The notes: generated from the sequence alone by a model not told the origin. A DNA stretch of 64,000 bases from Deferribacterales bacterium (GCA_050251945.1 JBFWLW010000006.1:1-64000), one strand, 5' to 3'. Positions 2,023 through 31,347 are shown, counted from the stretch's first letter. Translations and numbers: made by a program.

Positions 2023-2040
2023 AAAGATCCAGTCTCCGTT

Positions 2041-3543: not shown

Positions 3544-3574
3544 TATGAATTATCCTCCGAGGGTCGTCCTTTTT

Positions 3575-3790
3575 TCATTTAACAGGGTCGTAGCCGCCCT
3601 TTGAAAGGGGGGAACAACGTAAGATACGCCACACTGCCATGAGCGTACCCTTGACAAGCCCTTTTTTACGCAGCGCCTCCACTGCGTAGTCCGAGCAGGA
3701 GGGATAGAACCTGCATCTGTTGCCGAGCAGGGGTGAGATGAAAAGCTTATATAATCGTATCAGAAATATTATCGGTCTTCTTAAGTCCAA
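3575..3790 (-). CDS. yidD: Membrane protein insertion efficiency factor YidD (start uncertain; TTG at 3790 used)
   Basis: [10 protein letters not shown] and RILRC...GGYDPV motifs; lies between rnpA and yidC. Confidence 0.9.
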
Positions 3791-4124
3791 TATCTGCCGC
3801 AAGGCTGATAACTTCATCTCTCAGTTCACCGTAATCTGCGTTCGTGCATGCCGGCAATGCGCGGAACACCATGTCCAGACAGCAGGGAAACACTTGTCTG
3901 TTTCTGCGGAAAATCTCTCTCAGTCGGCGTTTGATCAGGTTTCGGACCACCGCCCGCTTGTCAACTTTCTTGCTGACGGTGATACCGACCCTTGTGCGGT
4001 CTTCTTCATTATATAGATAGTGGATGCAGACGAATCTGCCCTGTTTCTTTTTTCCCTGTCTGAAGACCCTTTCAAAATCCCGCGTGATCTTTAAGCGATC
4101 CTTTTCCGGAAAGCTTTCCGACAT
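3747..4124 (-). CDS. rnpA: Ribonuclease P protein component
   Basis: [26 protein letters not shown] motif. Confidence 0.95.
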
Positions 4125-8953: not shown

Positions 8954-9526
8954 TTAGGCTCCAGTTCCGTCCGCGAGGTTTGAAAGTACGGTCGCGCCGG
9001 GACGTATCACACAGTTCTTTCCGATGCGGACGCCTGATCCGATAACCGCTCCCGCACCGATAACCGTTTCGCTGCCGGCAGCCGCGCCGGTCTCAAGAAT
9101 GGCACCTGCTCCGATACTGACTCCGAATTCAATGATACAGTCGCTTTCAAGGACAGCCCCCGCCCCGATTATGCACGCTTTTCCACATATTACTGAATGG
9201 TTTATAACGGCACCAGCCATAACAATGCACCCCTCGCTCAAGGACGCATTGTCCGATATCCACGATGCAGGATGCACCAGAGGAAGCACTTTTGCCTTTA
9301 TCATTTTGAGTTCGTTGAAAAGAAGTGTCCTTATCCTGTTGTCGATGATTGCGAGGATAATTTTATCGTCTGTTACGATATCCTCCTCGCTTATCACTTT
9401 TATATGATTGAATCCCGCGCATCTCGTGTCCGAGACTGCAAGTCCGTCTATCTCTATCCCGTTTAAAACCGCTGTGTCGTACACCATTTTCGCGTACGAG
9501 CCCGCACCCATAATATATGTCGCCAT
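8954..9526 (-). CDS. NeuD/PglD-like hexapeptide-repeat acetyltransferase
   Basis: IMGAGSYA Rossmann start, VHPAS motif, repeated IGAGA hexapeptides. Confidence 0.8.
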   Translation of the reverse strand: MATYIMGAGSYAKMVYDTAVLNGIEIDGLAVSDTRCAGFNHIKVISEEDIVTDDKIILAIIDNRIRTLLFNELKMIKAKVLPLVHPASWISDNASLSEGCIVMAGAVINHSVICGKACIIGAGAVLESDCIIEFGVSIGAGAILETGAAAGSETVIGAGAVIGSGVRIGKNCVIRPGATVLSNLADGTGA

Positions 9527-9559
9527 AAAGCACCCTACTTGTTTTCGGGATACTATAAC

Positions 9560-9589
9560 AAAAAAGCCCGCTTTGAAAGCGGGCTTTTT
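9560..9589. terminator. Bidirectional intrinsic terminator ending the nuo operon
   Basis: AAAAAGCCCGCTTT-G-AAAGCGGGCTTTTT. Confidence 0.8.
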
Positions 9590-9608
9590 ATATTTGCAAA
9601 GATTATTT

Positions 9609-10070
9609 TCAGTTTTCAATATTTACGATGTCGTCATAGATATACTGGATATCCTTCTTATGGCATGCGACATCGTAGGCGAGGCGCATAAAAGCTTCCC
9701 CTGCCTCCGAGCTTTTGAACTTTTCAGCCATTGACTCGTAATACTTCATACTGGCGTCTTCATGGCGGATGGCGATGAGCAGAAGTTCCTGAACGTTCAA
9801 ACTGTCGGTGACAACCTCTGAATGTCCGGTCTTTCCGATGCCCAGATCTCTAAGCTTGCAGCTTGAGTCATGCCCGAGATTATCAAGACAGTCACACGTT
9901 ATCGCTTCCTCTATGACGCTTTTAAACTTCTTCTTCGTTTCGATAAGCTCTTTGATTATCTCTTTGGAACTGAGTTCCGCAACGATATCCAGAAGTTTTT
10001 CATAAAAGTCCAGCGTATGCTGCTCTTTCCTTGCCGCCTCGTTCAGTGCCTCAACAACCGTAGCTTCCAT
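9609..10070 (-). CDS. Ferritin/rubrerythrin-like four-helix protein
   Basis: Two repeats of A...E......FY/YY helix pairs; 9 bp downstream of nuoN. Confidence 0.75.
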   Translation of the reverse strand: MEATVVEALNEAARKEQHTLDFYEKLLDIVAELSSKEIIKELIETKKKFKSVIEEAITCDCLDNLGHDSSCKLRDLGIGKTGHSEVVTDSLNVQELLLIAIRHEDASMKYYESMAEKFKSSEAGEAFMRLAYDVACHKKDIQYIYDDIVNIEN

Positions 10071-10079
10071 CTTTTCTCC

Positions 10080-11519
10080 TTACACCAGCAGGTGTTTAAC
10101 GAAGTTGATGAACACTGCGGGGAAGAATCCCACGAACAGCACCATTACAACCCCGATGAAGCTGGTGATGAATGCGGAACGACCGACAGTAGCGTCAACA
10201 TCATACTCCGGCTCGTTGAAGTACATGTAGATTGTTACTCTCATGTAGTAGTAGCAAGCGAGAGCCGAGTTAAGTGCACCGATAACCGCCAGCCAGATCA
10301 TGTCCGCTTTCATGGCAGCCATGAATATCTGAAACTTGCCTATGAATCCTGCCAGAGGCGGGATACCTGCCAGAGAGAACATGAATATCAGCATGCCGAG
10401 GGCATACAGAGGGTTCTTTTTGGCAAGACCTGAAAAGCTTTCCAGACGCTCGTCCTCGACCATGCCTTTGTTTTTCAGAATACCGAGCAGAGTAAATGCT
10501 CCGATGTTCATGAAAACATAGATAAGCGAGTAAAGGGCGATTGCTCTGTAGCCTTCGGGGTTCATGGCAACCAGACCGATCATCATGTAACCTGCGTGTG
10601 AGATAGCCGAATAAGCCAGCATTCTCTTGACGTTTGTCTGTGCAAGCGCCACAAGGTTACCGTATGTCATTGTTAAAACCGCAAGGATTGAGAACAGAGG
10701 TACCCAAAGTCCTGATGCGGGTTCAAGTGCGATGTAAACAAATCTGATAAGAGCGGCAAACGCTGCTGCCTTAGGAGCCACGGTCATAAAGCCCGCAGCG
10801 GGTGTGGGTGCGCCCTGATAAACGTCAGGAGCCCACATGTGGAAAGGCACGGCAGATATTTTGAACGCAAAACCTGTAAGCATAAGGATAAGCCCTATCT
10901 TAACTGTCATGTTGTCAGCGATCATACCGCTTTTCAGCACCTCGGCTATCTGAATATAGTTCAGAGTGCCTGTTGCGCCGTAAACGTACGTCATACCGAA
11001 CAGGAGCATAGCGGAAGAGAAGGCACCGATTATGAAGTATTTAACTCCGGCTTCGGATGAACGCATCTCATTCTTGTTGAATCCTGCAAGGACGTACATT
11101 GCGATTGCCATAGTCTCAAGACCGACATAGAAGACTGTGAGGTCAAACGCAGACACCATGAACATCATACCGAGTATGCTGAAGAACATAAGTGTGTAGA
11201 ATTCGCCTTTCAGTATCCCTTTGTCTTTAAGGTATTCAACAGAACCCAGCGTGGTCAGTGTGTACGCCAGAGCGAAGATCACAAAGAACACATATGAGAA
11301 GTTGTCCCACATGAGCATGTTGTTGAAACCAAGGTACTTTCCGCCAAGCTGAGGGTTGGTCAGCAGAGCGACTATAAGCAGGAAGGCTATTCCGAAATAG
11401 CCGACCATGGACTTCTTCTCTTTTGAGGTCATGACATCAAGCACAACCAGTATCAGACCGAAGATGGTCATCAGCACTTCGGGAAAAATTGACTGCAGGT
11501 TTATCATAAAGTTCTGCAT
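10080..11519 (-). CDS. nuoN: NADH-quinone oxidoreductase subunit N
   Basis: EAGVKYF, FKISAVPFHMWAPDVY and KRMLAYS motifs. Confidence 0.96.
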   Translation of the reverse strand: MQNFMINLQSIFPEVLMTIFGLILVVLDVMTSKEKKSMVGYFGIAFLLIVALLTNPQLGGKYLGFNNMLMWDNFSYVFFVIFALAYTLTTLGSVEYLKDKGILKGEFYTLMFFSILGMMFMVSAFDLTVFYVGLETMAIAMYVLAGFNKNEMRSSEAGVKYFIIGAFSSAMLLFGMTYVYGATGTLNYIQIAEVLKSGMIADNMTVKIGLILMLTGFAFKISAVPFHMWAPDVYQGAPTPAAGFMTVAPKAAAFAALIRFVYIALEPASGLWVPLFSILAVLTMTYGNLVALAQTNVKRMLAYSAISHAGYMMIGLVAMNPEGYRAIALYSLIYVFMNIGAFTLLGILKNKGMVEDERLESFSGLAKKNPLYALGMLIFMFSLAGIPPLAGFIGKFQIFMAAMKADMIWLAVIGALNSALACYYYMRVTIYMYFNEPEYDVDATVGRSAFITSFIGVVMVLFVGFFPAVFINFVKHLLV

Positions 11520-11530
11520 TTAATGCCCCC

Positions 11531-13027
11531 CTACTGCATTGCCACTGCGGCAGTGTTCATATGCTCAACAAGCTTGATAACGCTTGCATGCATGTAAGAC
11601 TGGAAAGTCTCAGGGTACATTCCGACCCAGAACACTATTATAAGCAGCGGGAATATGTAGATTACTTCTCTGAGGTTCATATCGGCAAGATTTTCCCATC
11701 TTTTGTTCAGGCTCTGATACAGAACTCTCTGGAACATCCAAAGCATATACACGGCAGAGAAAATCACACCGATAGCAGCAAGGATTGCCCAGTCGGAGAA
11801 TGCGGCGAACGCACCCACCAGAACAAGGAATTCACCGATGAAGGCTCCCATTGAGGGAAGACCTATGGATGCCATTGTGAACACAAGGAAGATAGTAGCG
11901 TATACCGGCACGCTTGCAGCGATACCGCCGTAGTCCGCTATCTCTCTCGTATGTGTCCTTTCATATATCAGACCTATCAGAAGGAACAACGCGCCGGTAA
12001 TGATACCGTGGTTGAACATCTGGAGGATACCGCCTTCGATACCTGCCTGATTAAGGGCATAGATACCAAGGGTTACAAAACCCATGTGAGAAACCGAAGA
12101 GTAAGCAACCAGTTTCTTGATGTCTTTCTGAACCATCGCAACCAGTGCGCCGTAGATGATGGCTATCACGGACAGTGCCGCAACGAAAGGCATCAGCTTG
12201 ATGGCTGCATATGGTGTCATGGGAAGACAGAAACGGAGCATACCGTATGTACCCATTTTCAGCAGTACGCCCGCCAGAATGACCGAACCCGCTGTGGGCG
12301 CCTCAACGTGCGCATCGGGAAGCCATGTGTGGAGAGGGAACATAGGAACCTTGATGGCAAATCCGAGGAAAAATACCGCGAACACAACCATCTGGAATCC
12401 CTGAGTGTACATACCGTACTGTTCAGTTATCTTGAGCACGTCAAATGTGTAGTTGCCTGTAATCTGACCGTGTGTGTAGTACAGCGCGATGATTGCAAGC
12501 ATCATCAGAACCGAACCTGCGAGGGTGTATATGAAGAACTTCACCGCAGCGTAAACCCTGCGTTTTCCTCCCCATACGCCGATGATCAGATACATGGGTA
12601 TCAGCATAGCTTCCCAGAAGATGTAGAACAGGAAGAAGTCGAGCGCAAGGAATGTACCTATCATACCTGTTTCAAGAACAAGCATTGCGATGTAGAACTC
12701 TTTCTGTCTCTTCTGGATGTATGTGAATGAACCCAGAATGGCTATCATTGTAAGCAGAGTTGTCAGGAAAACCATGAGGATTGAGATACCGTCAACGCCC
12801 AGAAAATACTGAACGCCGATGGATTTTATCCACCATGCTTTTTCAACGAACTGCATGCCCCCTTCGCTCTTGTCGAAGTTTGCCATAAGCGGAATTGAGA
12901 TGATAAACTCGATAACGCTGGCTATGAAAGCTGCCCACATGGAGCTTTTGCCCTTCCTGAAAAAAATCAGGATGAACAGTGCAGCCGCAAGCGGGAAGAA
13001 AATCAGTAAGCTTAGTATATGTTGCAT
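11531..13027 (-). CDS. nuoM: NADH-quinone oxidoreductase subunit M
   Basis: FYIFWE and KVPMFPLHTWLPDAHVEAP motifs. Confidence 0.96.
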   Translation of the reverse strand: MQHILSLLIFFPLAAALFILIFFRKGKSSMWAAFIASVIEFIISIPLMANFDKSEGGMQFVEKAWWIKSIGVQYFLGVDGISILMVFLTTLLTMIAILGSFTYIQKRQKEFYIAMLVLETGMIGTFLALDFFLFYIFWEAMLIPMYLIIGVWGGKRRVYAAVKFFIYTLAGSVLMMLAIIALYYTHGQITGNYTFDVLKITEQYGMYTQGFQMVVFAVFFLGFAIKVPMFPLHTWLPDAHVEAPTAGSVILAGVLLKMGTYGMLRFCLPMTPYAAIKLMPFVAALSVIAIIYGALVAMVQKDIKKLVAYSSVSHMGFVTLGIYALNQAGIEGGILQMFNHGIITGALFLLIGLIYERTHTREIADYGGIAASVPVYATIFLVFTMASIGLPSMGAFIGEFLVLVGAFAAFSDWAILAAIGVIFSAVYMLWMFQRVLYQSLNKRWENLADMNLREVIYIFPLLIIVFWVGMYPETFQSYMHASVIKLVEHMNTAAVAMQ

Positions 13028-13043
13028 GATATTTCCGTCCCCC

Positions 13044-14966
13044 TTACACAGTGTAGAACAGTGCAACCAGTGCTATCACACCGACAACCATTGTGAAGAT
13101 GTAAGTCTGGATACGCCCTGTCTGCACATATCTTATTACTCCGCCGAGCCACATCGGAACACGTCCGAATGAGTTTACGATGAAGTCTATGACGTTTACG
13201 TCTATCGCTCTCCACAGAACAACGTTGGAAAGCATTACTATGGGATGAACGAACAGGAAGTCGTAAAGCTCGTCAAAGTACCACTTGTTAAGCAGGAACT
13301 TGTGAACGGGCTTGAAAGTCTTCACTGTTTTCTCCGGAAGTACCGGATAGAACTTCACATAGAACAGGTATGCAACCGTGATACCGGCAACCGCAACCAC
13401 GACTGAAAGTATCATAAGCGCCTGAGCAACGGCGTGGCTCATGTGGTGCTCGTGAGCATGCGCAGGAGTCAGAACCGGACCGAGGAACTTGTGGATGTAA
13501 CCTGCTTCCAGAGGATAACCGAAAACCATACCCACAAGCACTGAAAGGATGGCAAGAAACACAAGGGGACCTGCCATTGTCCAAGGAGACTCGTGTGCGT
13601 GGTCGTGAAGGTGATGGTCTCTGGGTTCGCCTTCAAACACAAGGAAGTAGCTTCTGAACATATAGAATGCAGTCATAGCCGCAACTACTGTACCGACTCC
13701 CCATGCAAGCGTGTGACCGCCGGCAAATGTGAAAGCGAGGATCTCATCTTTTGACCAGAAGCCTGCCAGCGGGGGGATACCTGCGATTGCGATACAACCG
13801 ATCAGGTATGTCCATCGTGTGACGGGCATTTTCTTTTTAAGACCGCCCATTACCCTTACGTCCAGATTGTTATGCATTGCGTGCATTACGGAACCGGAGC
13901 AAAGGAAGAGCAGACCTTTGAACATTGCGTGTGTGAAAAGGTGGAATATCGCTGAAACATATGCGCCCACACCGGTTGCCATAATCATGTAACCGAGCTG
14001 TGACACAGTTGAGTAAGCGAGTATTCTTTTAAGGTCATACTGTGTAAGACCGATAGATGCGCCGAGGAACGCTGTCATTGCACCGGTAAATATGATGAAG
14101 CTGCTTGTCATGTGCGCTTCTGCAAAGAGTGCGTTACAGCGTGCAACCATGTAAACCCCAGCGGTAACCATTGTTGCCGCGTGGATCAGTGCTGAAACAG
14201 GGGTGGGACCTTCCATCGCATCGGGCAGCCATGTGTGCAGCGGGAACTGGGCAGATTTACCCATAGCGCCGCAGAACAGTCCGAAGGTCATAAGGTCGAT
14301 AAGTGAGAACTCCATACCGAACACGGTATAGGTCACTTCTTTAATATGGTGAATAGCCTCTGCGTTGAAAGCATCGGAGTAGTTAAGGCTTCTGAAAGTG
14401 AAGATCACAAGCAGAAGACCGATGTAGAAACCGAAGTCACCGATTCTGTTCATTACGAAGGCTTTCTTACAAGCGTCGGCAGCGCTCTTTTTGAAGAACC
14501 AGAAACCGATCAGCAGGTATGATGACAGACCCACAAGTTCCCAGCCCACAAAGAGCATCATGAAGTTGTTTCCAAGCACAAGCACAAGCATTGAAAGGGT
14601 GAATACTGAAAGATATGTGAAAAATCTCCAGTAACCTTTGTCCCCGTGCATGTATCCCATTGAGTAGATGTGAACCATCAGGGATATAGTTGTAACAACT
14701 ATAAGCATTATGGACGACAGCGGGTCAACAAGTATTCCGAAGGGAACTTCGAGCTTGCCCGCAATTATCCAGGTGTAGAGTGTTCCGTCTACGGTAAAAC
14801 CTTGTGTGGATACAAGGTAGAACAGTATAAGAGCGCAGACGAAGGAGACACCAACACCTGTTATGGCTACCGCCGGTGCCGCAGTCTTGATATAACGTCT
14901 TCCGAAAAGCCCGTTAATCAGAAAGGCAACCAGGGGTCCAAGTAGTGTTAATACTGCAAAGATCAT
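13044..14966 (-). CDS. nuoL: NADH-quinone oxidoreductase subunit L
   Basis: GKSAQFPLHTWLPDAMEGPTPVSALIHAATMV. Confidence 0.97.
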   Translation of the reverse strand: MIFAVLTLLGPLVAFLINGLFGRRYIKTAAPAVAITGVGVSFVCALILFYLVSTQGFTVDGTLYTWIIAGKLEVPFGILVDPLSSIMLIVVTTISLMVHIYSMGYMHGDKGYWRFFTYLSVFTLSMLVLVLGNNFMMLFVGWELVGLSSYLLIGFWFFKKSAADACKKAFVMNRIGDFGFYIGLLLVIFTFRSLNYSDAFNAEAIHHIKEVTYTVFGMEFSLIDLMTFGLFCGAMGKSAQFPLHTWLPDAMEGPTPVSALIHAATMVTAGVYMVARCNALFAEAHMTSSFIIFTGAMTAFLGASIGLTQYDLKRILAYSTVSQLGYMIMATGVGAYVSAIFHLFTHAMFKGLLFLCSGSVMHAMHNNLDVRVMGGLKKKMPVTRWTYLIGCIAIAGIPPLAGFWSKDEILAFTFAGGHTLAWGVGTVVAAMTAFYMFRSYFLVFEGEPRDHHLHDHAHESPWTMAGPLVFLAILSVLVGMVFGYPLEAGYIHKFLGPVLTPAHAHEHHMSHAVAQALMILSVVVAVAGITVAYLFYVKFYPVLPEKTVKTFKPVHKFLLNKWYFDELYDFLFVHPIVMLSNVVLWRAIDVNVIDFIVNSFGRVPMWLGGVIRYVQTGRIQTYIFTMVVGVIALVALFYTV

Positions 14967-14975
14967 AACCTACCT

Positions 14976-15278
14976 CTATCCTCTCATAGTATTGATTTCA
15001 TCAGCGTTGATGGTCTGCTTGTTTCTGAACAGTGAAATGAACAGAGCCAGACCAACAGCGGCTTCCGCAGCGGCAACAGCCATGACGAAGACGATAAAAA
15101 TCTGTCCTGTCATCTGCTGAAGATAGCTTGAAAAGGCTGCGAGGTTGATGTTAACCGCGTTAAGCATAAGCTCCAGCGACATAAACATAACGATGAGGTT
15201 TCTGCGGATCAGAACACCTGCAACGCCGATGCTGAAGATTATTGCGCTAAGGACAAGATAATGTGCCAAAGTCAGCAT
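14976..15278 (-). CDS. nuoK: NADH-quinone oxidoreductase subunit K
   Basis: SLELMLN and [10 protein letters not shown] motifs. Confidence 0.96.
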
Positions 15279-15289
15279 CCTTAACCCCC

Positions 15290-15802
15290 TTAATCCTTTT
15301 TCGCTATTACTATCGCGCCGATCATAGCAACCAGCAGAAGCACGGATGCCACCTCGAAAGGTACGATATATTGTGTGAACATTACCGCTCCGAAGGCTTT
15401 CACGTTTGAGAGACCTTCAGGAAGGTTCATTCCTGTCATCTGAGCCGATTTGATAACGCCTGTTCCCATGAGAGTCATGACTATCTGAAGGAAAAGCACC
15501 AGCGCAACAACAGCGCCGAGTATAACCTTCGCAGGCAGCTTGATGAACCCTGTCGATTTAGGGTTAAGCAGCATCACGACAAACATATAAAGAACCAGAA
15601 TCGCTCCCGCGTATACCATAACCTGAATGGCGGCGATGTATTCAGCATCAAGCTGGATAAATATGCCAGCCACGGCAAAGAAGGTCAGAAGCATCCAAAG
15701 TGCGGAGTGGACAGGGTTCTCTCTGGTCACCATGAAAAGTGAGGCGACCACGGCAGTGATGCCCAGCACCCAAAATCCTACATTCATGAAGATTTCGTTC
15801 AT
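15290..15802 (-). CDS. nuoJ: NADH-quinone oxidoreductase subunit J
   Basis: [16 protein letters not shown] and PFEVAS motifs. Confidence 0.96.
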
Positions 15803-16293
15803 TGCTGCACTCCTTCCACAAGTTTCTTTTGAAGATGCTTGTTTTTCCAGTTGCCTTCCAAGTTATCTTTGTAGTTCATGGAGAGAGTTTTCATGTTGAT
15901 AACATAGCCGCTTCTGTCGGAAGCAACTGTGTTCCACTCCCAGCCCATGTGGATGGCGTCAACAGGGCAGACCTCTTCGCAGTATCCGCAGTAGATACAT
16001 CTGGAAAGATCAAGCTCATACTTTCTTATAAGCCTTTCGCCGTTGGGACCGCAGTCTGTTTCGATGTGTATGCACTCGGAAGGGCATACCTTCTGGCACA
16101 GGTAGCAGCCAACGCATTTTGTGCGTCCGTCGGCGTGGGTCTTAATGTACTGTATGCCTCTGAAACGATCCTGAATGGGGGTCGCTTCAAAAGGATATCT
16201 GTATGTCACGGGTTTTTTGAACATATGGCTCAGAGTGATTCCGAGACCCTGCAAAATCTCCGTGAAAAAGATTGTTTCAAATACGTTCTTCAT
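15799..16293 (-). CDS. nuoI: NADH-quinone oxidoreductase subunit I
   Basis: Two CxxCxxCxxxCP ferredoxin motifs; RFRG. Confidence 0.96.
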   Translation of the reverse strand: MKNVFETIFFTEILQGLGITLSHMFKKPVTYRYPFEATPIQDRFRGIQYIKTHADGRTKCVGCYLCQKVCPSECIHIETDCGPNGERLIRKYELDLSRCIYCGYCEEVCPVDAIHMGWEWNTVASDRSGYVINMKTLSMNYKDNLEGNWKNKHLQKKLVEGVQQ

Positions 16294-16302
16294 TATCCAC
16301 CC

Positions 16303-17262
16303 CTAGTTCCTGATCGCATAGACAACGATGCTGGTTATCAGCAGATTGGCGAGTGCGATCGGGATGAGTACTTTCCAGCCGAGATTCATGAGCTGGTCAA
16401 ATCTTAATCTGGGCAGAGTTGCTCTGAGCCACAGGAAGAAGAACATGAATGCCAGCATCTTGATCAGGAACCATACCAGCGGGGGAAGAAACGGACCGGT
16501 GTAGCCTCCGAGGAACAGAATTGCACACATGCAGGATACAACGTACATGTTTGCATATTCGCCAAGGAAGAACATTGCGAATCTCATACCTGAGTATTCA
16601 ACGTGGAAACCGGCAACCAGTTCTGTTTCCGCCTCCGGAAGGTCAAAGGGCGCTCTGTTGGTTTCAGCCACCGCAGAAATAGAGTAGATGACAAAAGCCA
16701 CGAACTGCGGAATGAAAAACCAAAGTCCTCTTTGCGCCTCTGTGATCTCTTTCAGGTTCAACGAACCTGCCAGAAGAACAGGACCGAGTATTGACAGACC
16801 CATCGCTGTTTCATAGCTGATTATCTGCGCGGATGAACGCAGAGAACCGAGGGTTGCATACTTGGAGTTGGATGCCCAGCCGGACATAATGATACCGTAT
16901 ACGCCGACTGATGACAGTGCCAGAACATAAAGCACTCCCACGTTAATGTCTGCTACGACAATGTTGGGCGCAAAAGGTATAACCGCAAAGGCTGCGATAC
17001 CGGGAACCATGCCGAGAAAAGGAGCAACATAAAAGACTGGTTTGTCAACCATATCCGGAGTCATATCCTCTTTCGCCATAAGTTTCAGACCGTCAGCCAG
17101 GGGTTGCAGAAGTCCCATGGGACCTGTGTGCACGGGACCAAGCCTCACCTGCATGTGACCGATAACCTTACGTTCGGCATAGGTCATGTAGGCAACGCCG
17201 GTAAGCACGCATACAACGATAATCAGTATCTTGATTAGTGTAAAAACAATCGCGAGTACCAT
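16303..17262 (-). CDS. nuoH: NADH-quinone oxidoreductase subunit H
   Basis: ERKVIG, GLLQPLADGLKL and AETNRAPFDLPEAE motifs. Confidence 0.97.
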   Translation of the reverse strand: MVLAIVFTLIKILIIVVCVLTGVAYMTYAERKVIGHMQVRLGPVHTGPMGLLQPLADGLKLMAKEDMTPDMVDKPVFYVAPFLGMVPGIAAFAVIPFAPNIVVADINVGVLYVLALSSVGVYGIIMSGWASNSKYATLGSLRSSAQIISYETAMGLSILGPVLLAGSLNLKEITEAQRGLWFFIPQFVAFVIYSISAVAETNRAPFDLPEAETELVAGFHVEYSGMRFAMFFLGEYANMYVVSCMCAILFLGGYTGPFLPPLVWFLIKMLAFMFFFLWLRATLPRLRFDQLMNLGWKVLIPIALANLLITSIVVYAIRN

Positions 17263-17288
17263 TCCCTACCTCTTATCTATAACTTTCA

Positions 17289-19550
17289 TTACTTTACAAT
17301 ATCAGCCCTGAGGCTCTTTCCGTTACAGAAGATGCCGGCTGTTGCAACAAAGTCCTCCGGCAGAGCTATGCAGCCTTTGGATACTTTCTTTTCTATTTCA
17401 ACAGGAAACTCACCTTCAAAGCCTTCGCCTTTGATCTTGACCCTGTCTTTGGCGAAGATGCCGAGTTCTTTCGCGTCTTCGACGCTGAGTTCAAGCATCG
17501 GCTCGCCGTATACCTTGGCAAGATCGGGTGACCATCTTGTGAAAGAGCCTGAGTGGAGTCTGAGGCTGGCGGGATAAAGGAAAAATCTGCCTTTACCTTT
17601 CGCCCTGCCGTCTGTTGCAGCGACTTCACCCGCAAAGACATAAGGGTAGGAAACCACGCCGCCGTCCCAGTTTATGCCTGAGTAAAGCGGAACTTCCTTC
17701 TCTATCATGCCTCTTACGGCACTCACATCGGCGGGAAGCTGTGTTCCCAGTCCTTTCGCTATTGCGGAAACGACACAGGCATCAGTGTTAACGCCTTTAT
17801 CAACCGCTTTTTCTATGGACTGGACGCGTCCCTCAAGGTTAGTGAATGAACCGCTCTTCTCTGCGAAGGTGCTTACGGGAATGTAAACATTCGCCATAGC
17901 CGCCGTTTCGCTCATAAAAGGGTCTGTCACCAGCAGAAGCTCAAGCCCTGCCGCCTTGGAAGCCGATTTTGTCCAAACGGATCTCGCAGACAGGTTTTCA
18001 CCCAGAACCACTACAGCCTTGAATTTGCCTGACTCAAGTCCCTGTGCAAATTCTGTGGGGCATTTGGCTCCGAATCCCATGTCAACGATACCCACTGAGT
18101 TGTTTTTAGCTTTCGCGGGAACAACTTTAACTTTCGCACAGGCTTTTTTGATATCCTGAGCGAGTTTAACGTCCGCTTTGTTATAGGGATCAAATATAAC
18201 CACGGGTCTTTCGGCGTTTGTAAGTTTTGCCGCCCAGTCGGAATATTCGTTGGAAGCGCCCGCAACCGCAGCCGCGTAGCTTTCCATTGCTGCTCTCACC
18301 TCATCGGGTGTGCCTGTGACGAATTTCTTCGACACTCTTCTGAGAGCCGTATATCCGGGGTAGAACACTGCAAGGGGAGCTGTGCCTGTTCTTGCGGCGT
18401 GTCTCACTGCCAGACCGAGTATGGGGTTTGATTCTGTTACATCAATGTTAAGAACTGTGACACAGTCGCTGTTCTCAACTTCTTCCAGTGTCGCTTCGGG
18501 GTTGACTTCGTTTGTCTCGGTTGAGAACAGGTTTGAAGTTCCCAGAACGTCTTTCGCAAGTTTGCCTGCAAGGAAAGCCTCTTCGTTGGTCAGTCTGGGG
18601 GAGACAACAACAGCTATGGCGTCCGCGCCGGCTGTTTCTTTGACCTTTTTGAGTTTTTCCACTGCAACATCAACCGCTTCGTTGAATGATACCTTTTTGG
18701 ATTCTCCGCCCGCTTTAACAACTGCCTCAGACTGACGTTTGATGCTGTTGATAAACTCGAAACCGAAGCGTCCTTTTGCGCACATGTATCCGTGGTTGAT
18801 GCCCTCTTCGGGGCTTTCTTTCATACGGAATACCTCGTTGCCTTCATAATCTATGTCCACGGTACATCCGCAGGAGCAGAGTCCGCATACGGATTTGACA
18901 CGGTCGAGGTTCCAAGGTCTGTTCTTGAACAGATAAATCCTGTTGTTCAGTGAACCCACGGGACATACGCTGATGCATTGTCCGCAGTATTCGCAGTTCC
19001 AGGGCTGTTCAAAAGAAGTTCCTATTATTGTATCAGTGCCTCTGTTAAGGAAGCTTATCGCCTGAATGTTCACCACTTCGTCGCAGACACGAACGCAGCG
19101 TCCGCAGAGAACGCATCTGTCGATATCCCTTTCGATGAAAGGGTTTGTATGGTCAACGGGGGTGTCGTTGGGTTTCGCATCAAAACGAACTTTTGTGACG
19201 CCCACTTCATATGTAAGGTCCTGCAGAGTACACTCGCCGCCCTTATCGCAAACGGGGCAGTCCAGAGGGTGATTTATAAGAAGCAGCTCGATGGCTGTCT
19301 TGCGCACTCTGGAGAGCTTTTCCGAACGGGTGACGATCTCCATCTTGTCAGTTACGGGTGTTGTACAGGCTGCCTGGAGTTTGGGGTTTCCCACCTGCTC
19401 CACAAGACAAACCCTGCATGCACCGAAAGGATTAAGACGGGAGTCATGGCAAAGTGTCGGGATGGAGACACCCGCCTCCTTAGCGGCGTCGAGGATTAGC
19501 GTGTTTGGAGCTACCTGTACCTCTTTTCCGTCAATTTTTACAGTAACCAT
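17289..19550 (-). CDS. nuoG: NADH-quinone oxidoreductase subunit G (HydA/BfuA-like Fe-S N-terminus)
   Basis: 2Fe-2S Cys set, HPLDCPVCDKGGEC, 2x[4Fe-4S] motifs, CGLCSCGC, molybdopterin-oxidoreductase fold. Confidence 0.93.
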   Translation of the reverse strand: MVTVKIDGKEVQVAPNTLILDAAKEAGVSIPTLCHDSRLNPFGACRVCLVEQVGNPKLQAACTTPVTDKMEIVTRSEKLSRVRKTAIELLLINHPLDCPVCDKGGECTLQDLTYEVGVTKVRFDAKPNDTPVDHTNPFIERDIDRCVLCGRCVRVCDEVVNIQAISFLNRGTDTIIGTSFEQPWNCEYCGQCISVCPVGSLNNRIYLFKNRPWNLDRVKSVCGLCSCGCTVDIDYEGNEVFRMKESPEEGINHGYMCAKGRFGFEFINSIKRQSEAVVKAGGESKKVSFNEAVDVAVEKLKKVKETAGADAIAVVVSPRLTNEEAFLAGKLAKDVLGTSNLFSTETNEVNPEATLEEVENSDCVTVLNIDVTESNPILGLAVRHAARTGTAPLAVFYPGYTALRRVSKKFVTGTPDEVRAAMESYAAAVAGASNEYSDWAAKLTNAERPVVIFDPYNKADVKLAQDIKKACAKVKVVPAKAKNNSVGIVDMGFGAKCPTEFAQGLESGKFKAVVVLGENLSARSVWTKSASKAAGLELLLVTDPFMSETAAMANVYIPVSTFAEKSGSFTNLEGRVQSIEKAVDKGVNTDACVVSAIAKGLGTQLPADVSAVRGMIEKEVPLYSGINWDGGVVSYPYVFAGEVAATDGRAKGKGRFFLYPASLRLHSGSFTRWSPDLAKVYGEPMLELSVEDAKELGIFAKDRVKIKGEGFEGEFPVEIEKKVSKGCIALPEDFVATAGIFCNGKSLRADIVK

Positions 19551-19569
19551 ACTGAGTCTCTCCTCTGCC

Positions 19570-21357
19570 TTAATCTATTGCATTGAAAGGACAGTTAACG
19601 ATACATTCGCGACATTTCACACATTTGGATTTGTCTATATATGCAACCGTTCCTTTTTCCCATGTGATAGCATCAACGGGACATGCTTTTTTGCAGATAC
19701 CGCATTTTTTGCATCTGTCGTCAACAACCACGAACTCAATGAGTTCCGCACACTCCCTTGCGGGGCATTTTTTATCTCTGATGTGCGCCTCGTACTCATG
19801 TCTGAAATATTTCACAGTCGTAAGTACGGGGTTTGGTGCTGTCTGACCCAGACCGCAGAGTGACGCAGTCTTGATGTCGTTACCTACTTCCAGAAGAAGA
19901 TCGATGTCCTCTTCCCTTCCCTGACCTGTGATGATCCTTGTAAGGATATCAAGCATGGTCTTTGTTCCGATACGGCAGGGGATACATTTGCCGCATGATT
20001 CTCTCTGGGTGAATGTAAGGAAGAAATGAGCCACGTTAACCATGCAGTTCGTTTCGTCCATAACAACAACACCGCCGGAACCCATCATCGCACCTGCTGC
20101 GATGAGCGAATCGTAGTCTATGGGTGTTTCAAGGTGGTCAGGTGTAAGACAGCCGCCTGAGGGACCGCCAAGCTGAACAGCCTTGAATTTTCTCTTTTTC
20201 GGGATACCGCCGCCGACATCAAAAATGAGTTCGCGCACGGTGATACCCATAGGAACCTCAACAAGTCCGGTTGACTTGACCTTGCCTGAAAGGGCGAAGA
20301 TCTTCGTACCTTTTGACTTTTCAGTACCTATGTTTGCATACCACTCGGATCCGTTAAGCAGGATGCCGGGAAGGTTTGCGAATGTTTCAACGTTGTTAAC
20401 GTTTGAAGGTTTCTGCCAGAGACCCTTAACAGCGGGGAACGGAGGTCTGGGACGGGGCATGCCTCTTTCGCCTTCAATAGAGGCGATGAGAGCTGTTTCC
20501 TCGCCGCAGACGAAAGCGCCTGCACCCTCTTTCAGCTTCAGTTTGAAGTGGAAGTCGGTACCGAACACCTTGTCGCCGAGTATTCCTGCTGCTTCAGCAT
20601 CTTTAATGGCTTTGATAACCCTGACGATGGCAAGGGGATATTCCGCACGGCAATAGATGTAACCTTCGTCACATCCGATTGCGTAACCTGCGATAAGCAT
20701 ACCCTCGATAACCGCGTGGGGATTACCTTCGATGATGGAACGATCCATGAACGCACCGGGGTCACCTTCATCCGCGTTGCAGATAAGGTATTTATGGTCG
20801 CCGGGGCTGTTTCGGCAGAACGTCCATTTAAGACCTGTGGGGAAACCGCCGCCCCCCCTGCCTCTGAGGCCTGACTTCTTGACTTCGTCAATAACCTGCT
20901 CAGGGGTCATGGTGAGCGCTTTTTTAATCGCTTCGTATCCGCCGAGTTTGATGTAGTCCTCAAGGCTTTCGGGGTCTACACGTCCGCAGTCGGCAAGAAC
21001 GTAGCGTTTCTGTTTGTCATAGAATTGAAAATAGTCGGCCTTCGCCGCCCACTTCTCAACAACTTTACCGCCGACAATGTGTTCCTCAACTATTGTGGGA
21101 ACCATTTCAGCAGAAACGTGTTCGTAAGTGATCGGGTCTTTGCCTGGGATATAAACGTCTATAAGTACGTCACGGGCGCAGAGTCCTCTGCATCCTGTCT
21201 GTTTCGTGGCACAGTTGCGTTCTTTGGATTCCGCGTTCTTGAGACCTCTTTTGGCAAACTCCTGTTCCAGAGCCTCCATAACCTCATGTCCGCCGGAAGC
21301 AACACCAGCCGTACCCATACAGACGTGTACTTCAACGTGATCTGTTGTATAACTCAT
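19570..21357 (-). CDS. nuoF: NADH-binding subunit NuoF, long HydB/BfuB type (595 aa)
   Basis: GLRGRGGGGFP, NADEGDPGAFMDR, GGPSGG, ESCGKCIPCR; extra N-terminal thioredoxin-like domain and C-terminal 2x[4Fe-4S] domain. Confidence 0.93.
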   Translation of the reverse strand: MSYTTDHVEVHVCMGTAGVASGGHEVMEALEQEFAKRGLKNAESKERNCATKQTGCRGLCARDVLIDVYIPGKDPITYEHVSAEMVPTIVEEHIVGGKVVEKWAAKADYFQFYDKQKRYVLADCGRVDPESLEDYIKLGGYEAIKKALTMTPEQVIDEVKKSGLRGRGGGGFPTGLKWTFCRNSPGDHKYLICNADEGDPGAFMDRSIIEGNPHAVIEGMLIAGYAIGCDEGYIYCRAEYPLAIVRVIKAIKDAEAAGILGDKVFGTDFHFKLKLKEGAGAFVCGEETALIASIEGERGMPRPRPPFPAVKGLWQKPSNVNNVETFANLPGILLNGSEWYANIGTEKSKGTKIFALSGKVKSTGLVEVPMGITVRELIFDVGGGIPKKRKFKAVQLGGPSGGCLTPDHLETPIDYDSLIAAGAMMGSGGVVVMDETNCMVNVAHFFLTFTQRESCGKCIPCRIGTKTMLDILTRIITGQGREEDIDLLLEVGNDIKTASLCGLGQTAPNPVLTTVKYFRHEYEAHIRDKKCPARECAELIEFVVVDDRCKKCGICKKACPVDAITWEKGTVAYIDKSKCVKCRECIVNCPFNAID

Positions 21358-21360
21358 ATC

Positions 21361-21867
21361 CTACCCCTGAAGTGCTGCATAATCCCTGAAGATCTTACGA
21401 GCCTCTTCAGGTTTCAGGTTGCCGTATGTTTTATTGTTGATCATGATAACGGGAGCCATTCCGCATGCACCGATGCATGAAACTTCCTCAAGTGTAAACT
21501 TGAGGTCTGCGCTTGTCTCACCGTTTCTTATCCCGAATTCCTCACACACAACTTCGGAGATACGACCCGAACCCTGCACGTGGCAGGCTGTTCCTCTGCA
21601 TACCCTGATGACATATTTGCCTCTGGGTTTAGTGTAAAACTGTGCATAGAAGGTAATAACGCCATAAATCTGGTGTGCTGACATATTCAGGTTGTCGGCA
21701 ATCCTTTCAACAATTTCGCTAAAGAGAAATCCGTATGCTTCCTGAACCTGCTGGAGAACCGGAATGGTCGCGCCTTTCCAGTCTTTATACTTTTCGCAGA
21801 TCTCGTCGCATGCGGTAAAGTCTATCTCTTTGCCTGCTGATTCTGTCTCTTTTACTTCTGTCGCCAT
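21361..21867 (-). CDS. nuoE: NADH-quinone oxidoreductase subunit E (HydC-like)
   Basis: CRGTAC...CIGAC 2Fe-2S motif. Confidence 0.95.
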   Translation of the reverse strand: MATEVKETESAGKEIDFTACDEICEKYKDWKGATIPVLQQVQEAYGFLFSEIVERIADNLNMSAHQIYGVITFYAQFYTKPRGKYVIRVCRGTACHVQGSGRISEVVCEEFGIRNGETSADLKFTLEEVSCIGACGMAPVIMINNKTYGNLKPEEARKIFRDYAALQG

Positions 21868-21878
21868 TATGTCACCCC

Positions 21879-23063
21879 TTACCTGTCGATTTCGCCGAGT
21901 ACCACGTCGTTGGTACCGACTATCGCAACAAGGTCGGCCAGCATGTGTCCTTTGGCCATCTTGTTCAGTACGCCGAGGTTAACATAGGAGGGGGCTCTTA
22001 TCTTCATCCTGTAAGGTCTTTCTTCTCCTTCGGAAACAAGATAGAAACCGAGTTCGCCTTTGGGCGCCTCGATACCCTGATATGTTTCGCCTTTGGGAGC
22101 TTTGAAACCTTTGGAAACGATGTAGAATCTTCTGATAAGTGCTTCCATGCGCTCGTAAACGTCTTCGTGCGAGGGCAGAGCAACTCTGGGGTCGTCGGTC
22201 ATGACTTCGCCTGTTGCGGGTATCTGCTCAAGAGCCTGCTGAAGAATCTTGTTTGATTCACGAAGCTCTTTCATTCTGACTTTATAACGTGCGTATGTAT
22301 CGCCTTCCTGCTGTACGGGAATTTCCCATTTGAACCTGTCGTAGATGCCGTAGGGTTCGTCACGGCGAAGATCGAAATCAACACCTGAGCCTCTCATAAG
22401 GGGACCTGACGTACCGTAAGCCTGAGTATCGTCAGCGGAAAGATGTCCGATGCCGATGGTTCTCATTTTCCAGATTCTGTTGTTTGTCAGCAGGTTTTCG
22501 TATGTGTCAACGTTAGCGTCGAATCTTTCAACGAAGGATTTAAGCCTTACAAAGAAATCTTCGGGCATGTCTGCGCGGATGCCGCCGATACGGATCCATG
22601 AGCTGGTCATACGCTGACCTGTGCCCACTTCAAACATATCAAGGATCTCCTCACGCTCACGGAAAGCGTAAAGGAATACGGTCATCGCGCCTATATCAAG
22701 GGCGTGTGTTGCAACCCACACAAGGTGAGATGCAATTCTTGACATCTCTGCGAGCATAACTCGGAGGTATTCGGCTCTCTCGGGAATATTAACGTCAAAG
22801 AACTTCTCTACTGCAAGGCAGTAGGCAAGGTTATTAGAAAGAGGTGAAAGGTAGTCAAGTCTGTCTGTGAGCGGAATAACCTGGTGGTATGTTCTGTTCT
22901 CGGCAAGTTTTTCAGTGCCTCTGTGGAGAAAGCCCACATCGGGTTCCACATTGACAATGGTCTCGCCGTCGATGTCTACCACAAGTCTCAGAACCCCGTG
23001 TGTCGAGGGGTGCTGGGGTCCCATGTTGACGGTAATTACTTCTGAAATGTTATTGTTAATCAT
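21879..23063 (-). CDS. nuoD: NADH-quinone oxidoreductase subunit D
   Basis: NMGPQHPSTHGVLRL, RLDY, C-terminal GEIDR; no NiFe CxxC. Confidence 0.97.
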   Translation of the reverse strand: MINNNISEVITVNMGPQHPSTHGVLRLVVDIDGETIVNVEPDVGFLHRGTEKLAENRTYHQVIPLTDRLDYLSPLSNNLAYCLAVEKFFDVNIPERAEYLRVMLAEMSRIASHLVWVATHALDIGAMTVFLYAFREREEILDMFEVGTGQRMTSSWIRIGGIRADMPEDFFVRLKSFVERFDANVDTYENLLTNNRIWKMRTIGIGHLSADDTQAYGTSGPLMRGSGVDFDLRRDEPYGIYDRFKWEIPVQQEGDTYARYKVRMKELRESNKILQQALEQIPATGEVMTDDPRVALPSHEDVYERMEALIRRFYIVSKGFKAPKGETYQGIEAPKGELGFYLVSEGEERPYRMKIRAPSYVNLGVLNKMAKGHMLADLVAIVGTNDVVLGEIDR

Positions 23064-23071
23064 ATCAGTTC

Positions 23072-23569
23072 CTACCTTGAAAACTTAAGACCGAGACCTT
23101 GCTCATCAGCATTGTTGAACCATGATCTCTCTTTAAGCGGGAAGTCTTTTCTGAGGGGGTGACCTTCAAAGAATTCGGGAAGCAGGACTCTTTTCAGGTT
23201 GGGGTGACCTTCAAAGACTATGCCCATAAGGTCATACTGCTCCCTTTCCATCAGGTTTGCACCCGGCCAGATATCTGTGATAGTGGGGAACTTATTGTCC
23301 TCACCTGAAAGTTTGACAAAAACGCGCAGCTTGTTCTCAACAGAGAACAGGTTGATGGTGATCTCAAACTTTTCACGTTTCTTGGGCCAGTGTACGGCAA
23401 CAACGTCCACTATGTACTTGAAGGATGCTTCGTCTCTTAAAGCAGTTAAAACCGCTTTATAGGCGGCGGCGTCCTTCACTCTTATGAAGTTGCACTTGAA
23501 CTCCGTATAGCTGTTGAGCTTTTCGGGGAAAAGTGCTTCCAGTTTGGCTGCAAGCTGTTCAAATGTCAT
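23072..23569 (-). CDS. nuoC: NADH-quinone oxidoreductase subunit C
   Basis: EREQYDLMGIVFEGHP and GHPLRKDFP motifs. Confidence 0.96.
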   Translation of the reverse strand: MTFEQLAAKLEALFPEKLNSYTEFKCNFIRVKDAAAYKAVLTALRDEASFKYIVDVVAVHWPKKREKFEITINLFSVENKLRVFVKLSGEDNKFPTITDIWPGANLMEREQYDLMGIVFEGHPNLKRVLLPEFFEGHPLRKDFPLKERSWFNNADEQGLGLKFSR

Positions 23570-23578
23570 CCTTTCCTC

Positions 23579-24055
23579 CTACTTTCTCACGACTTTTTCA
23601 GTCATGATTTTCTTTTGCAGAGCAGTAATGGCATCGAAAAATGCTTCGGGTCTGGGAGGGCAGCCGGGAACATAGAAATCAACCGGAATAACCTCGTCAA
23701 CACCTTGCACTGTAGAATAGGTGTTATAGATTCCGCCGCTTGTTGCGCAGCTTCCGATAGCTATGACCCATTTGGGCTCAGGCATCTGCAGATAGACCTT
23801 TCTGACGACAGGCGCCATTTTTCTGGTAACTGTTCCGGCAACCAGCATCAGGTCTGACTGACGCGGGGTCGCGCGGAAAATGATACCCATTCTGTCAAGG
23901 TCGAATTTGGCAGCGCCGCAGGCCATCATTTCGATCGCGCAGCAGGCGAGACCGAACGTAACAGGCCAGATAGAGCCTTTTCTGCAGTAGTTGATAACAT
24001 TATCAACCGTTGTTGTGAGAACGTTGTCAGGTAATTTTCTGTCAATTAAGCCCAT
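23579..24055 (-). CDS. nuoB: NADH-quinone oxidoreductase subunit B
   Basis: [10 protein letters not shown] and PGCPPRPE motifs. Confidence 0.97.
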
Positions 24056-24399
24056 TCTAACGCTCCTTTCTGCCATGCGTAAAAGTAACCGAAAACAAGG
24101 ATTACGATGAACAGAATCATCTCGATGAGACCGAAAAGCCCGATCATGTCGAAGCTGACGGCCCAGGGGTACAGAAACACTGTCTCCACATCAAAAATAA
24201 CAAACAGCATAGCGATTATGTAGAACCTGAGGTTCAGACGCTTTCTGTTTTCATCCAGCGAGGGCATTCCGCACTCATATACGCTGAATTTGACCTTTTC
24301 ATATTTCGCGGGACGGACAATGGCTCCTACGAACATAATTATTATGCCGAGAGCTCCGGCCACGATAAGGAAAAGCACTATAGGCAAATATCCACTCAT
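24046..24399 (-). CDS. nuoA: NADH-quinone oxidoreductase subunit A
   Basis: YECG and [12 protein letters not shown] motifs. Confidence 0.97.
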
Positions 24400-29997: not shown

Positions 29998-30384
29998 ATG
30001 AGAGAGCGTGAATTTACCCCAGCTGAACGAGCTTTACTCGAAAGCAATGTAAATGTGTTGAAAGTGGTGAACAGTAACATCATTTACACAGAAGAATTTA
30101 AACGTCATGCCATTAATGTATGTAAAGAAGGTGTCTCTGTTAATAATATTTTTCATGATGCTGGAATAGATTTATCAATATTCCCCCATAATTACGCTAA
30201 GTATACCCTAAAACGTTGGCGTAAAGCTCAGGAAAGTCATAAGGAACAACAAGTTCCTAAACGCAGAGGTCGCCAGAAAAATGTCAGCAATATGACCAGA
30301 GAAGAGATGGAGGCGAAGATAACCTATCTCGAAGCGGAGAATGATTTCTTAAAAAAGCTTCGAGCCTTGGAGTTAGGAGAATAG
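29998..30384 (+). CDS. IS3 transposase OrfA
   Basis: HTH-like region and LEAENDFLKKL coiled coil with A-AAA-AAG slippery site. Confidence 0.9.
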   Translation: MREREFTPAERALLESNVNVLKVVNSNIIYTEEFKRHAINVCKEGVSVNNIFHDAGIDLSIFPHNYAKYTLKRWRKAQESHKEQQVPKRRGRQKNVSNMTREEMEAKITYLEAENDFLKKLRALELGE

Positions 30385-31271: not shown

Positions 31272-31347
31272 CCCGTGGCTTTTTGTGCTGTCCTAAAAAT
31301 AGGATACAGTTCAAAAGCGGGGCTTTTTTTTCGTTACAGGGGGAGAG

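Follow-up and report, generated by a model that had tools for sequence, protein, structure and literature searches.

The stretch of DNA analysed here (64,000 nucleotides from a Deferribacterales bacterium, GCA_050251945.1 JBFWLW010000006.1:1-64000; hereafter the window) carries 15 consecutive open reading frames (ORFs) on the minus strand, running from position 24399 to position 9609, and the first 14 of these are NuoA to NuoN, the subunits of complex I, by Pfam. All 14 subunits are encoded in a single cluster (24399..10080, minus strand), in which the head genes lie mid-cluster in the order nuoD-E-F-G-H, the gene order of the predicted enzyme Nuo-Bfu discussed below. A first-pass annotation of the same DNA had proposed a complete nuoA-N operon spanning 9609..24399; the operon is indeed complete, with a Pfam match for each of its 14 genes, and only the range needs trimming, since positions 9609-10070 belong to a non-nuo ORF, here called orf153. 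The 15 genes, in the order of transcription, are the following.

24046..24399, minus strand: nuoA, 117 amino acids (aa); PF00507, E-value (E) 6.9e-37
23579..24076, minus strand: nuoB, 165 aa; PF01058, E 1.2e-31
23072..23569, minus strand: nuoC, 165 aa; PF00329, E 1.3e-39
21879..23063, minus strand: nuoD, 394 aa; PF00346, E 5.2e-114
21361..21867, minus strand: nuoE, BfuC-type, 168 aa; PF01257, E 5.8e-53, with a C1 motif at Cys90/95/131/135
19570..21357, minus strand: nuoF, BfuB-type, 595 aa; from Pfam, matches to solved-structure sequences, ligands, AlphaFold model and fold comparison
17289..19550, minus strand: nuoG, BfuA-type, 753 aa; from Pfam, its nearest solved relative StnC and its table of cysteines
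16303..17262, minus strand: nuoH, 319 aa; PF00146, E 2.6e-130
15799..16293, minus strand: nuoI, 164 aa; Fer4 families, with same-position orthologues in 5/5 related operons
15290..15802, minus strand: nuoJ, 170 aa; PF00499
14976..15278, minus strand: nuoK, 100 aa; PF00420
13044..14966, minus strand: nuoL, 640 aa; PF00361, PF00662 and PF01010
11531..13066, minus strand: nuoM, 511 aa; PF00361
10080..11519, minus strand: nuoN, 479 aa; PF00361
9609..10070, minus strand: orf153, a predicted rubrerythrin-like four-helix protein, 153 aa, directly downstream of nuoN

From its N- to its C-terminus, NuoF comprises a thioredoxin-like domain (the B5 site), an FMN/NADH core (flavin mononucleotide and nicotinamide adenine dinucleotide), the B1 site, a B2/Zn site and a 2x[4Fe-4S] domain that holds B3 and B4. 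Pfam recognizes the core as Complex1_51K, SLBB and NADH_4Fe-4S and places the C-terminal 2x[4Fe-4S] domain, which the first-pass annotation had also claimed, at residues 543-594 (Fer4 and related families). The thioredoxin-like domain claimed for the N-terminus is present as well: its match to a thioredoxin-like 2Fe-2S family is weak (E 8.8e-4), and AlphaFold models it confidently. Every NuoF motif quoted in that annotation (CNADEGDPGAFMDR, GTKIFALSG, GGPSGG, NCMV, HIRDKKCPAREC, VCMGTAG and RNCATKQTGCRGLC) occurs in the 595-aa translation, and GLRGRGGGGFPTG together with CNADEGDPGAFMDR constitutes the intact FMN/NAD(H) site of a BfuB protein.

To place the head subunits, we compared the sequences of NuoE, NuoF and NuoG with all chains of solved structures. 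NuoF matched, over its full length, the B subunits of enzymes whose bifurcation has been demonstrated experimentally, those of A. mobile NiFe-HydABCSL (7t2r_B, 803 bits), C. saccharolyticus NfnABC (9bov_B, 772 bits), S. ovata StnABC (8oh5_B, 754 bits), T. sibiricus NfnABC (9n5u_B, 749 bits) and the HydABC enzymes of A. woodii (7q4v_B, 745 bits), T. kivui (8a6t_B, 708 bits) and T. maritima (7p5h_B, 659 bits). The non-bifurcating FdsB scored 418 bits, and complex I Nqo1/NuoF chains 371-411 bits (T. thermophilus Nqo1 being the one at 411) over residues ~117-533 only. Fold comparison gave the same division. The AlphaFold model of NuoF, built on a 39-sequence alignment (predicted local distance difference test score, pLDDT, 91.5; predicted template-modelling score, pTM, 0.88), gives query-normalised template-modelling (TM) scores of 0.89-0.93 when superposed on seven bifurcating enzymes, with one chain or more of each in that range, and of 0.64-0.68 on the F subunits of complex I. 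In Foldseek, the solved bifurcating B subunits (7t2r, 9bov/9bp5, 9n5u, 8oh5, 7q4v, 8a6t and 7p5h) share the same full-length domain order with NuoF at 49-69% identity, and their B1, B3, B4 and B2/Zn ligands are the same. Canonical NuoF, in contrast, is ~420-445 aa long and has neither terminal domain. The comparison with the E. coli, T. maritima and A. woodii proteins consists of this solved-structure search and the superpositions; our own trees, described below, were built from other sequences.

Ligand positions were taken from Schut et al. 2022 (Front Microbiol 13:946711, PMC9304861) in A. mobile numbering, which in our alignment matches that of NuoF from about residue 200 onward, and were followed through 121 close NuoF homologues (62-94% identity) from Deferribacterota and Desulfuromonadales. 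The B1 ligands Cys455/458/461/501 and the B2/Zn ligands Cys438, His525, Cys531 and Cys536 are invariant in 121/121, while the B3 ligands (Cys549/552/555/559) and B4 ligands (Cys579/582/585/589) are conserved in 120-121 of the set; conservation of this degree points to purifying selection acting on the ferredoxin branch. At residue 476 (window ~19930-19932, minus strand) NuoF has Ile, where the remaining Deferribacterota representatives have Thr and those of Desulfuromonadales have Cys; in A. mobile HydB this position is a Cys that supplies a fifth B2 ligand, and in most BfuB proteins it is described as Thr (PMC9304861). Because the fifth ligand is missing, a four-ligand zinc form fits the B2 site of NuoF better than a [2Fe-2S] cluster, and we consider it the more likely occupant. 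NuoF also displays everything by which Losey et al. 2020 (PMC7311640) recognize bifurcating subunits, namely Ala or Glu together with Met in the NADH motif (here Ala202 and Met204), Phe near the FMN site (Phe354), GGPSG in the SLBB region (residues 397-401) and extra Fe-S domains. Of 167 sequences, 9 that lack the C-terminal domain show the same residues, so the pattern is indicative rather than exclusive. Sequence, fold, the Losey residues and the cluster ligands thus all back the earlier suggestion that NuoF is HydB-like and not E. coli-like; in the grouping proposed as its test, NuoF falls with the bifurcating B subunits and not with non-bifurcating ones.

The other two head subunits fall with the same enzymes. 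NuoE combines its PF01257 match with the four cysteines of the C1 [2Fe-2S] cluster of BfuC (Cys90/95/131/135), and its best solved relatives are T. kivui HydC (8a6t_C, 173 bits), followed by StnA and NfnC, versus at most 104 bits for the NuoE chains of complex I. NuoG is closest to StnC (8oh5_C, 333 bits) and contains motifs for a [2Fe-2S] cluster, a His94-ligated [4Fe-4S] cluster, two [4Fe-4S] clusters in a ferredoxin-like domain and an N7-type [4Fe-4S] cluster, in addition to a degenerate molybdopterin-like domain. The extra [4Fe-4S] motifs that had been attributed to NuoG come down to Cys156/186/189/192, which is kept in 6/6 Deferribacterales NuoG examined, whereas the corresponding positions are L/N/A/I in canonical NuoG from another class of the phylum; both kinds of NuoG have the N7-type motif (Cys222/225/229/257). 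The extra cysteines together with the N7-type motif are the combination expected of the BfuA of a Nuo-Bfu. Among solved structures, the nearest relatives of NuoE, NuoF and NuoG are therefore the C, B and A subunits, respectively, of the bifurcating (Bfu) enzymes. With canonical N-modules (T. thermophilus Nqo1-3, E. coli and Aquifex NuoEFG) they share the FMN/NADH core, N3, an N1a-type NuoE, the N1b/N4/N5/N7 motifs of NuoG and the operon order, and they differ from them in the two terminal domains of NuoF and in Cys156/186/189/192 of NuoG.

The solved bifurcating enzymes are soluble and use H2, NADP(H) or an aldehyde as third substrate, whereas here the A subunit is NuoG, genes for the membrane arm of complex I follow, and the B5 site is without the second Cys of its Cx4C motif. 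One could suppose that NuoEFG is a separate soluble Bfu enzyme that happens to be encoded inside the nuo cluster, and that the membrane arm forms an 11-subunit complex with another donor. Eleven-subunit complexes without NuoEFG are described from other bacteria (PMC11238625), and the homologous nuoF2 of Nitrospinota stands alone, with no other nuo gene within the flanks in 43/43 loci of at least 15 kb, which matches the description by Lücker et al. 2013 (PMC3578206). In the present operon and in 5/5 other genera, however, nuoE-F-G sit between nuoD and nuoH with short gaps, and no hydrogenase-type or other partner was found nearby. Scored against the NuoG model TIGR01973, NuoG reaches 441 bits (cut-off 470), versus 198 bits against the Fdh-alpha model TIGR01591 (cut-off 666), which indicates that it has no recognizable catalytic domain for a third substrate. 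A free-standing soluble enzyme strikes us as highly improbable. The window is part of one contig of a 3.07 Mb genome that is 99.97% complete, in which nuoD is the single PF00346 match and the two Complex1_51K genes are nuoF and rnfC (517 bits). With one NuoD, and with RnfC as the only other Complex1_51K protein, the Bfu head and the membrane arm are left without alternative partners, in favour of the 14-subunit reading that we prefer below.

An enzyme of this kind belongs to a class already described. Schut et al. define the Bfu family and predict from genomes a 14-subunit proton-translocating enzyme, 'Nuo-Bfu', represented by 51 sequences, with BfuB clade 38 made up of Deferribacteres and Proteobacteria and clade 39 of Planctomycetes and Nitrospirae (PMC9304861). 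They propose that BfuABC takes the place of NuoEFG, that menaquinone is the third substrate and that NADH and reduced ferredoxin are oxidised simultaneously, and they cite co-expression of the nuo-bfu cluster in Geobacter. The present operon is one more well-preserved example, and the sole complex I of its genome. It shares with Nuo-Bfu the BfuC/B/A genes lying midway in a nuoA-N cluster, the extra NuoG clusters (their 'Type 3'), the phylum and menaquinone as the presumed acceptor; it differs in no respect of kind, the only departure being a rebuilt B5 ligand pattern set against a BfuBC core whose cofactor content is there called 'absolutely conserved'. The remark in the first-pass annotation that similar long NuoF proteins are known from other anaerobes was correct and understated, given that the class had been named, Deferribacteres included. 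In the literature we searched, the term 'Nuo-Bfu' appears in no other paper. What we add is small: the changed ligand set at B5, and a rubrerythrin-like gene whose position behind nuoN is conserved.

A second related system is NUO-2 of Nitrospina gracilis and 'Ca. Kuenenia', for which Lücker et al. describe a long NuoF that carries a [2Fe-2S] domain at its N-terminus and a 2x[4Fe-4S] domain at its C-terminus, and a NuoG that has gained one further [4Fe-4S] cluster (PMC3578206). According to the same source, the FMN site of NUO-2 is missing, and reverse electron flow is proposed in an aerobic nitrite oxidiser. The NuoF2 proteins of Nitrospinota are only 45-47% identical to the NuoF studied here, and their FMN/NAD motifs have diverged.

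Named homologues of this long NuoF come from Denitrovibrio (88% identity), Geovibrio (84%), other Deferribacterales and Desulfuromonadales (63-64%), and the order rluD-nuoA-N-orf153 is the same in 5/5 other genera examined. Among 68 genomes of the phylum, 33 encode a full-length long NuoF (74-100% identity) and one more has it split over contig ends; it is present in 34/35 genomes of six families, the exception being a genome that is 73% complete. No long NuoF was found in three other families (30 genomes), and in a tenth family (3 genomes) the nuo operon is canonical, its NuoF is short, and a soluble BfuC-B-A-like cluster is encoded separately. Locus L009, from another class of the phylum, holds a canonical operon of this kind. 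Separate soluble clusters resembling NuoE, NuoF and the N-terminal part of NuoG were seen elsewhere in the phylum; together with the canonical operon they come from loci L008 and L009 of genome G003, L010 of G006 and L011 of G013. Their NuoF-like proteins show 48-52% identity to NuoF, and they are probably hydrogenase- or dehydrogenase-linked Bfu enzymes.

The genome also encodes possible sources and acceptors of electrons. Genes for ferredoxin-reducing 2-oxoacid oxidoreductases are present, with five POR_N matches, one of them in a 1207-aa open frame. Two genes of the MqnA/MqnD family indicate that menaquinone is made by the futalosine route, and a search of the genome with a menA model gave no match. 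Menaquinone is therefore a plausible quinone for this complex; for methylmenaquinone, which the first-pass annotation had entertained alongside it, our literature search returned nothing linking it to this phylum.

The N-terminal site is where NuoF departs most from the solved enzymes. A canonical B5 site has four cysteines in the pattern Cx4C...Cx3C, and it had been pointed out from the sequence that NuoF has no second Cys; this holds across its near relatives, Gly18 occupying that position in 121/121 close homologues. Cys13 is present in 116/121 (the remaining five have gaps there), and Cys49, Cys56, Cys60 and Asp63 are invariant. We surveyed this site in 150 cluster representatives (P0125-P0274) drawn from a library of 1.84 billion proteins, of which 101 have the Cx3C pair. 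The canonical Cys13 and Cys18 occur together in 48/101, and Cys49 in 0/48 of these; a single Cys at position 17, as in StnB, occurs in 44/101, and 41/44 of these carry Glu63; other patterns make up 8/101. The Cys13/Gly18/Cys49/Asp63 pattern of NuoF was found in one representative (P0143), whose relatives occupy 79 loci, all from Nitrospinota-type records. Their NuoF2 proteins share the full Cys13/Gly18/Cys49/Cys56/Cys60/Asp63 pattern with NuoF: 70/70 full-length copies agree at positions 13, 17, 18, 49 and 60, and one of the 70 has an unreadable residue at position 56. The same rebuilt pattern occurs in Desulfuromonadales. BfuB-like B5 domains thus come in at least three ligand patterns, and both three-Cys patterns have an acidic residue three positions past the Cx3C pair, where the canonical pattern mostly has Gly or Ala (position 63). 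The complementarity of Cys18 and Cys49 derives from one or two evolutionary events and is therefore statistically weak.

The first-pass annotation had offered the Cys at position 49 as a substitute for the missing ligand. Its invariance agrees with that idea, but the AlphaFold model casts doubt on it: Cys49 is the third residue of strand 47-54, whose far end leads to Cys56, and Cys13 ends strand 6-13, so that Cys49, judged from secondary structure, would sit at the other end of the sheet from the cluster loops (mean pLDDT for residues 41-50 is only 67). We regard Cys49 as a doubtful ligand and Asp63 as the better candidate for the fourth position. His24 was considered as another substitute and rejected, its position being Gln, Leu or Glu in relatives. 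Departures from the four-Cys set are known in related enzymes: StnB, despite its three-Cys pattern, was modelled with a [2Fe-2S] cluster, in a flexible region that its authors docked from AlphaFold, and the archaeal T. sibiricus NfnABC has zinc at B5 and is still active and bifurcating (PMC12018979).

We then asked how the rebuilt B5 site is distributed on trees of the protein core (404 columns, residues 128-530, with the B5 trait columns excluded; FastTree and a quick IQ-TREE run). A clade of NuoF from Deferribacterota and Desulfuromonadales is supported (96 and 99), the deep order is not resolved, and the Nitrospinota NuoF2 proteins lie elsewhere, on a long branch beside short forms. In an approximately unbiased (AU) test, the tree that unites all 13 pattern-bearing rows scored 94.85 log-likelihood units above the free quick tree (p-AU 0.988; LG+G4); as the group was named after the first tree had been seen and the search was short, this says that a single origin is not rejected, and no more. 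A more ambitious reading would take the complex-I-bound BfuB proteins of Deferribacterota, Desulfuromonadales and Nitrospinota as one lineage marked by the rebuilt site (Cys18 lost, Cys49 and Asp63 fixed), the rebuilt site as an adaptation that gates electrons from NADH and ferredoxin into the proton pump, and the enzyme as a true confurcating complex I, in which pumping with low-potential menaquinone is restored to the full. Taken jointly, these claims seem to us improbable, and we put them forward only tentatively.

The reading we prefer is that the operon encodes a complete 14-subunit complex I with NuoE, NuoF and NuoG of the BfuC, BfuB and BfuA types, which would take electrons from both NADH and reduced ferredoxin and pass them to menaquinone with proton pumping; we put its probability at about one half. 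The Bfu head would dock on the membrane arm as NuoEFG does. NADH would enter at the FMN site of NuoF, while reduced ferredoxin would enter at B4/B3 of the C-terminal domain and continue via the mobile NuoE cluster, as proposed for the solved Bfu enzymes; electrons would exit through B1 and NuoG and run by way of NuoI and NuoB to menaquinone, and protons would be pumped. Ferredoxin as a substrate, and with it menaquinone as the acceptor and the direction of flow, is what we infer from the protein sequences and the gene content. As to whether the two donors are obligatorily coupled (confurcation, the proposal of Schut et al.) or enter independently, we see roughly even odds. Menaquinone has a potential of -74 mV (as cited in PMC9304861), and both NADH and ferredoxin are exergonic donors to it, so coupling is not thermodynamically required; it would serve pumping yield, not feasibility.

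Several observations weigh against the preferred reading. Canonical complex I itself has off-pathway clusters (N1a and N7), so the presence of additional clusters does not by itself imply additional substrates. With both donors downhill to menaquinone, confurcation loses its usual rationale, and Rnf, present in this genome, might already connect ferredoxin with NAD+. NuoF has Ile at position 476, where A. mobile HydB has a B2 ligand, and its B5 site is not of the canonical four-Cys type; in T. kivui HydABC, deleting the N-terminal (B5) domain abolished bifurcation (PMC12018979). Finally, our literature search, which left subscription journals largely outside its reach, returned no enzymology, structure or genetics for any Nuo-Bfu.

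Much of this would suit an ordinary NADH:menaquinone oxidoreductase in which the Bfu domains are leftovers of its ancestry, or have a role in stability, assembly or electron storage, and in which ferredoxin is no substrate. The FMN/NADH site and B1 (the N3 equivalent) are intact, the onward route through NuoG, NuoI and NuoB has all its cluster motifs, Rnf is available for ferredoxin:NAD+ exchange, and the non-canonical B5 site, Ile476 and the tolerance of canonical complex I for off-pathway clusters point the same way. What such an enzyme leaves hard to explain is why 120-121 of 121 homologues, from two phyla, should retain the B3/B4 cysteines and the Cys/His ligands of the linker site if the clusters they hold are unused; moreover, the characterised non-bifurcating homologues are described as having no B2-B5 (PMC9304861). 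We therefore consider an NADH-only enzyme possible, though on the unlikely side.

The enzyme might also work mainly in reverse, oxidising menaquinol at the expense of the proton motive force while the Bfu head divides the electrons between NAD+ and ferredoxin, so that low-potential ferredoxin becomes available to biosynthesis or reductive carboxylation. Reversibility has been described for Bfu enzymes (PMC9304861), quinol-to-ferredoxin reverse flow is what was proposed for the related NUO-2 of Nitrospina and Kuenenia (PMC3578206), and the rebuilt B5 site is common to NuoF and the Nitrospinota NuoF2 in 70/70 full-length loci. Yet the complex is the only complex I of its genome and so would also be needed for forward NADH oxidation, the FMN/NAD motifs of NuoF are standard for Bfu enzymes, unlike the diverged ones of NuoF2, and Rnf already offers a way of reducing ferredoxin with NADH at the cost of an ion gradient. 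The named relatives, furthermore, are anaerobic respirers. Predominantly reverse operation thus appears distinctly unlikely.

If the forward, two-donor enzyme is real, it would account for the way in which acetate-oxidising anaerobes, among them Geobacter and Deferribacteres, re-oxidise the ferredoxin reduced by 2-oxoacid oxidoreductases with energy conserved. Efficient proton pumping by complex I with menaquinone would be explained as well, and the enzyme would be a candidate for a link between complex I that depends on ferredoxin and complex I that depends on NADH. These three implications were already proposed in 2022, and cultivable relatives offer at least as easy a test of the ferredoxin question.

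The last ORF of the series, orf153, is a diverged rubrerythrin-like protein of the diiron four-helix type, as judged from family scores. It reaches 18.9 bits on Pfam PF02915 (Rubrerythrin), below the cut-off of 22.8; the orthologue in one further genome (G023) likewise falls just under it at 20.6 bits, and these two copies have lost some of the ExxH-type residues, while orthologues from three other genera score 40-57 bits, above the cut-off. Its position after nuoN is kept in 5/5 other Deferribacterales genera examined, at 43-79% identity (L003:15194-15652, L004:14872-15330, L005:1478-1936 on the minus strand, L006:15121-15576 and L007:15840-16298). A role in peroxide protection, or as an accessory protein of the complex, is conceivable. 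An ORF for a NeuD/PglB-family acetyltransferase (8954-9619, minus strand) overlaps the end of orf153 by 11 bases; it was not seen behind the operon at any of the five related loci.

Neither end of the operon has promoter-like sites in excess of shuffled sequence (1 versus 1.7 and 4 versus 2.2), and a terminator scan 3' of orf153 found none. Words common to the window turned up in 16 sequencing runs, and four of these were examined over 30 bins: two contain near-identical short contigs in 28/30 and 21/30 bins, their RNA label being a guess, and one true metatranscriptome contains contigs of 90-99% similarity in 27/30 bins, probably sequences of relatives. Such contigs attest presence only and therefore permit no conclusion on transcription or co-transcription.

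Beyond the operon, the window covers the region of the chromosome origin, with jag, yidC and rnpA at 1279-4124 and dnaA at 35881-37215, which places the nuo operon close to the origin of replication. A HemN-like class C radical SAM protein (NF006385, 446 bits) is encoded at 34358-35704 on the minus strand, 10 kb from the operon; it may be the reason why the first-pass annotation mentioned (methyl)menaquinone, and a quinone methyltransferase of the MenK/MqnK type is one conceivable identity for it. An IS3-family transposase (30420-31271), preceded by a small upstream ORF (29998-31271 together, plus strand), lies in a stretch of lower G+C, which is 0.414 over 30001-32000.

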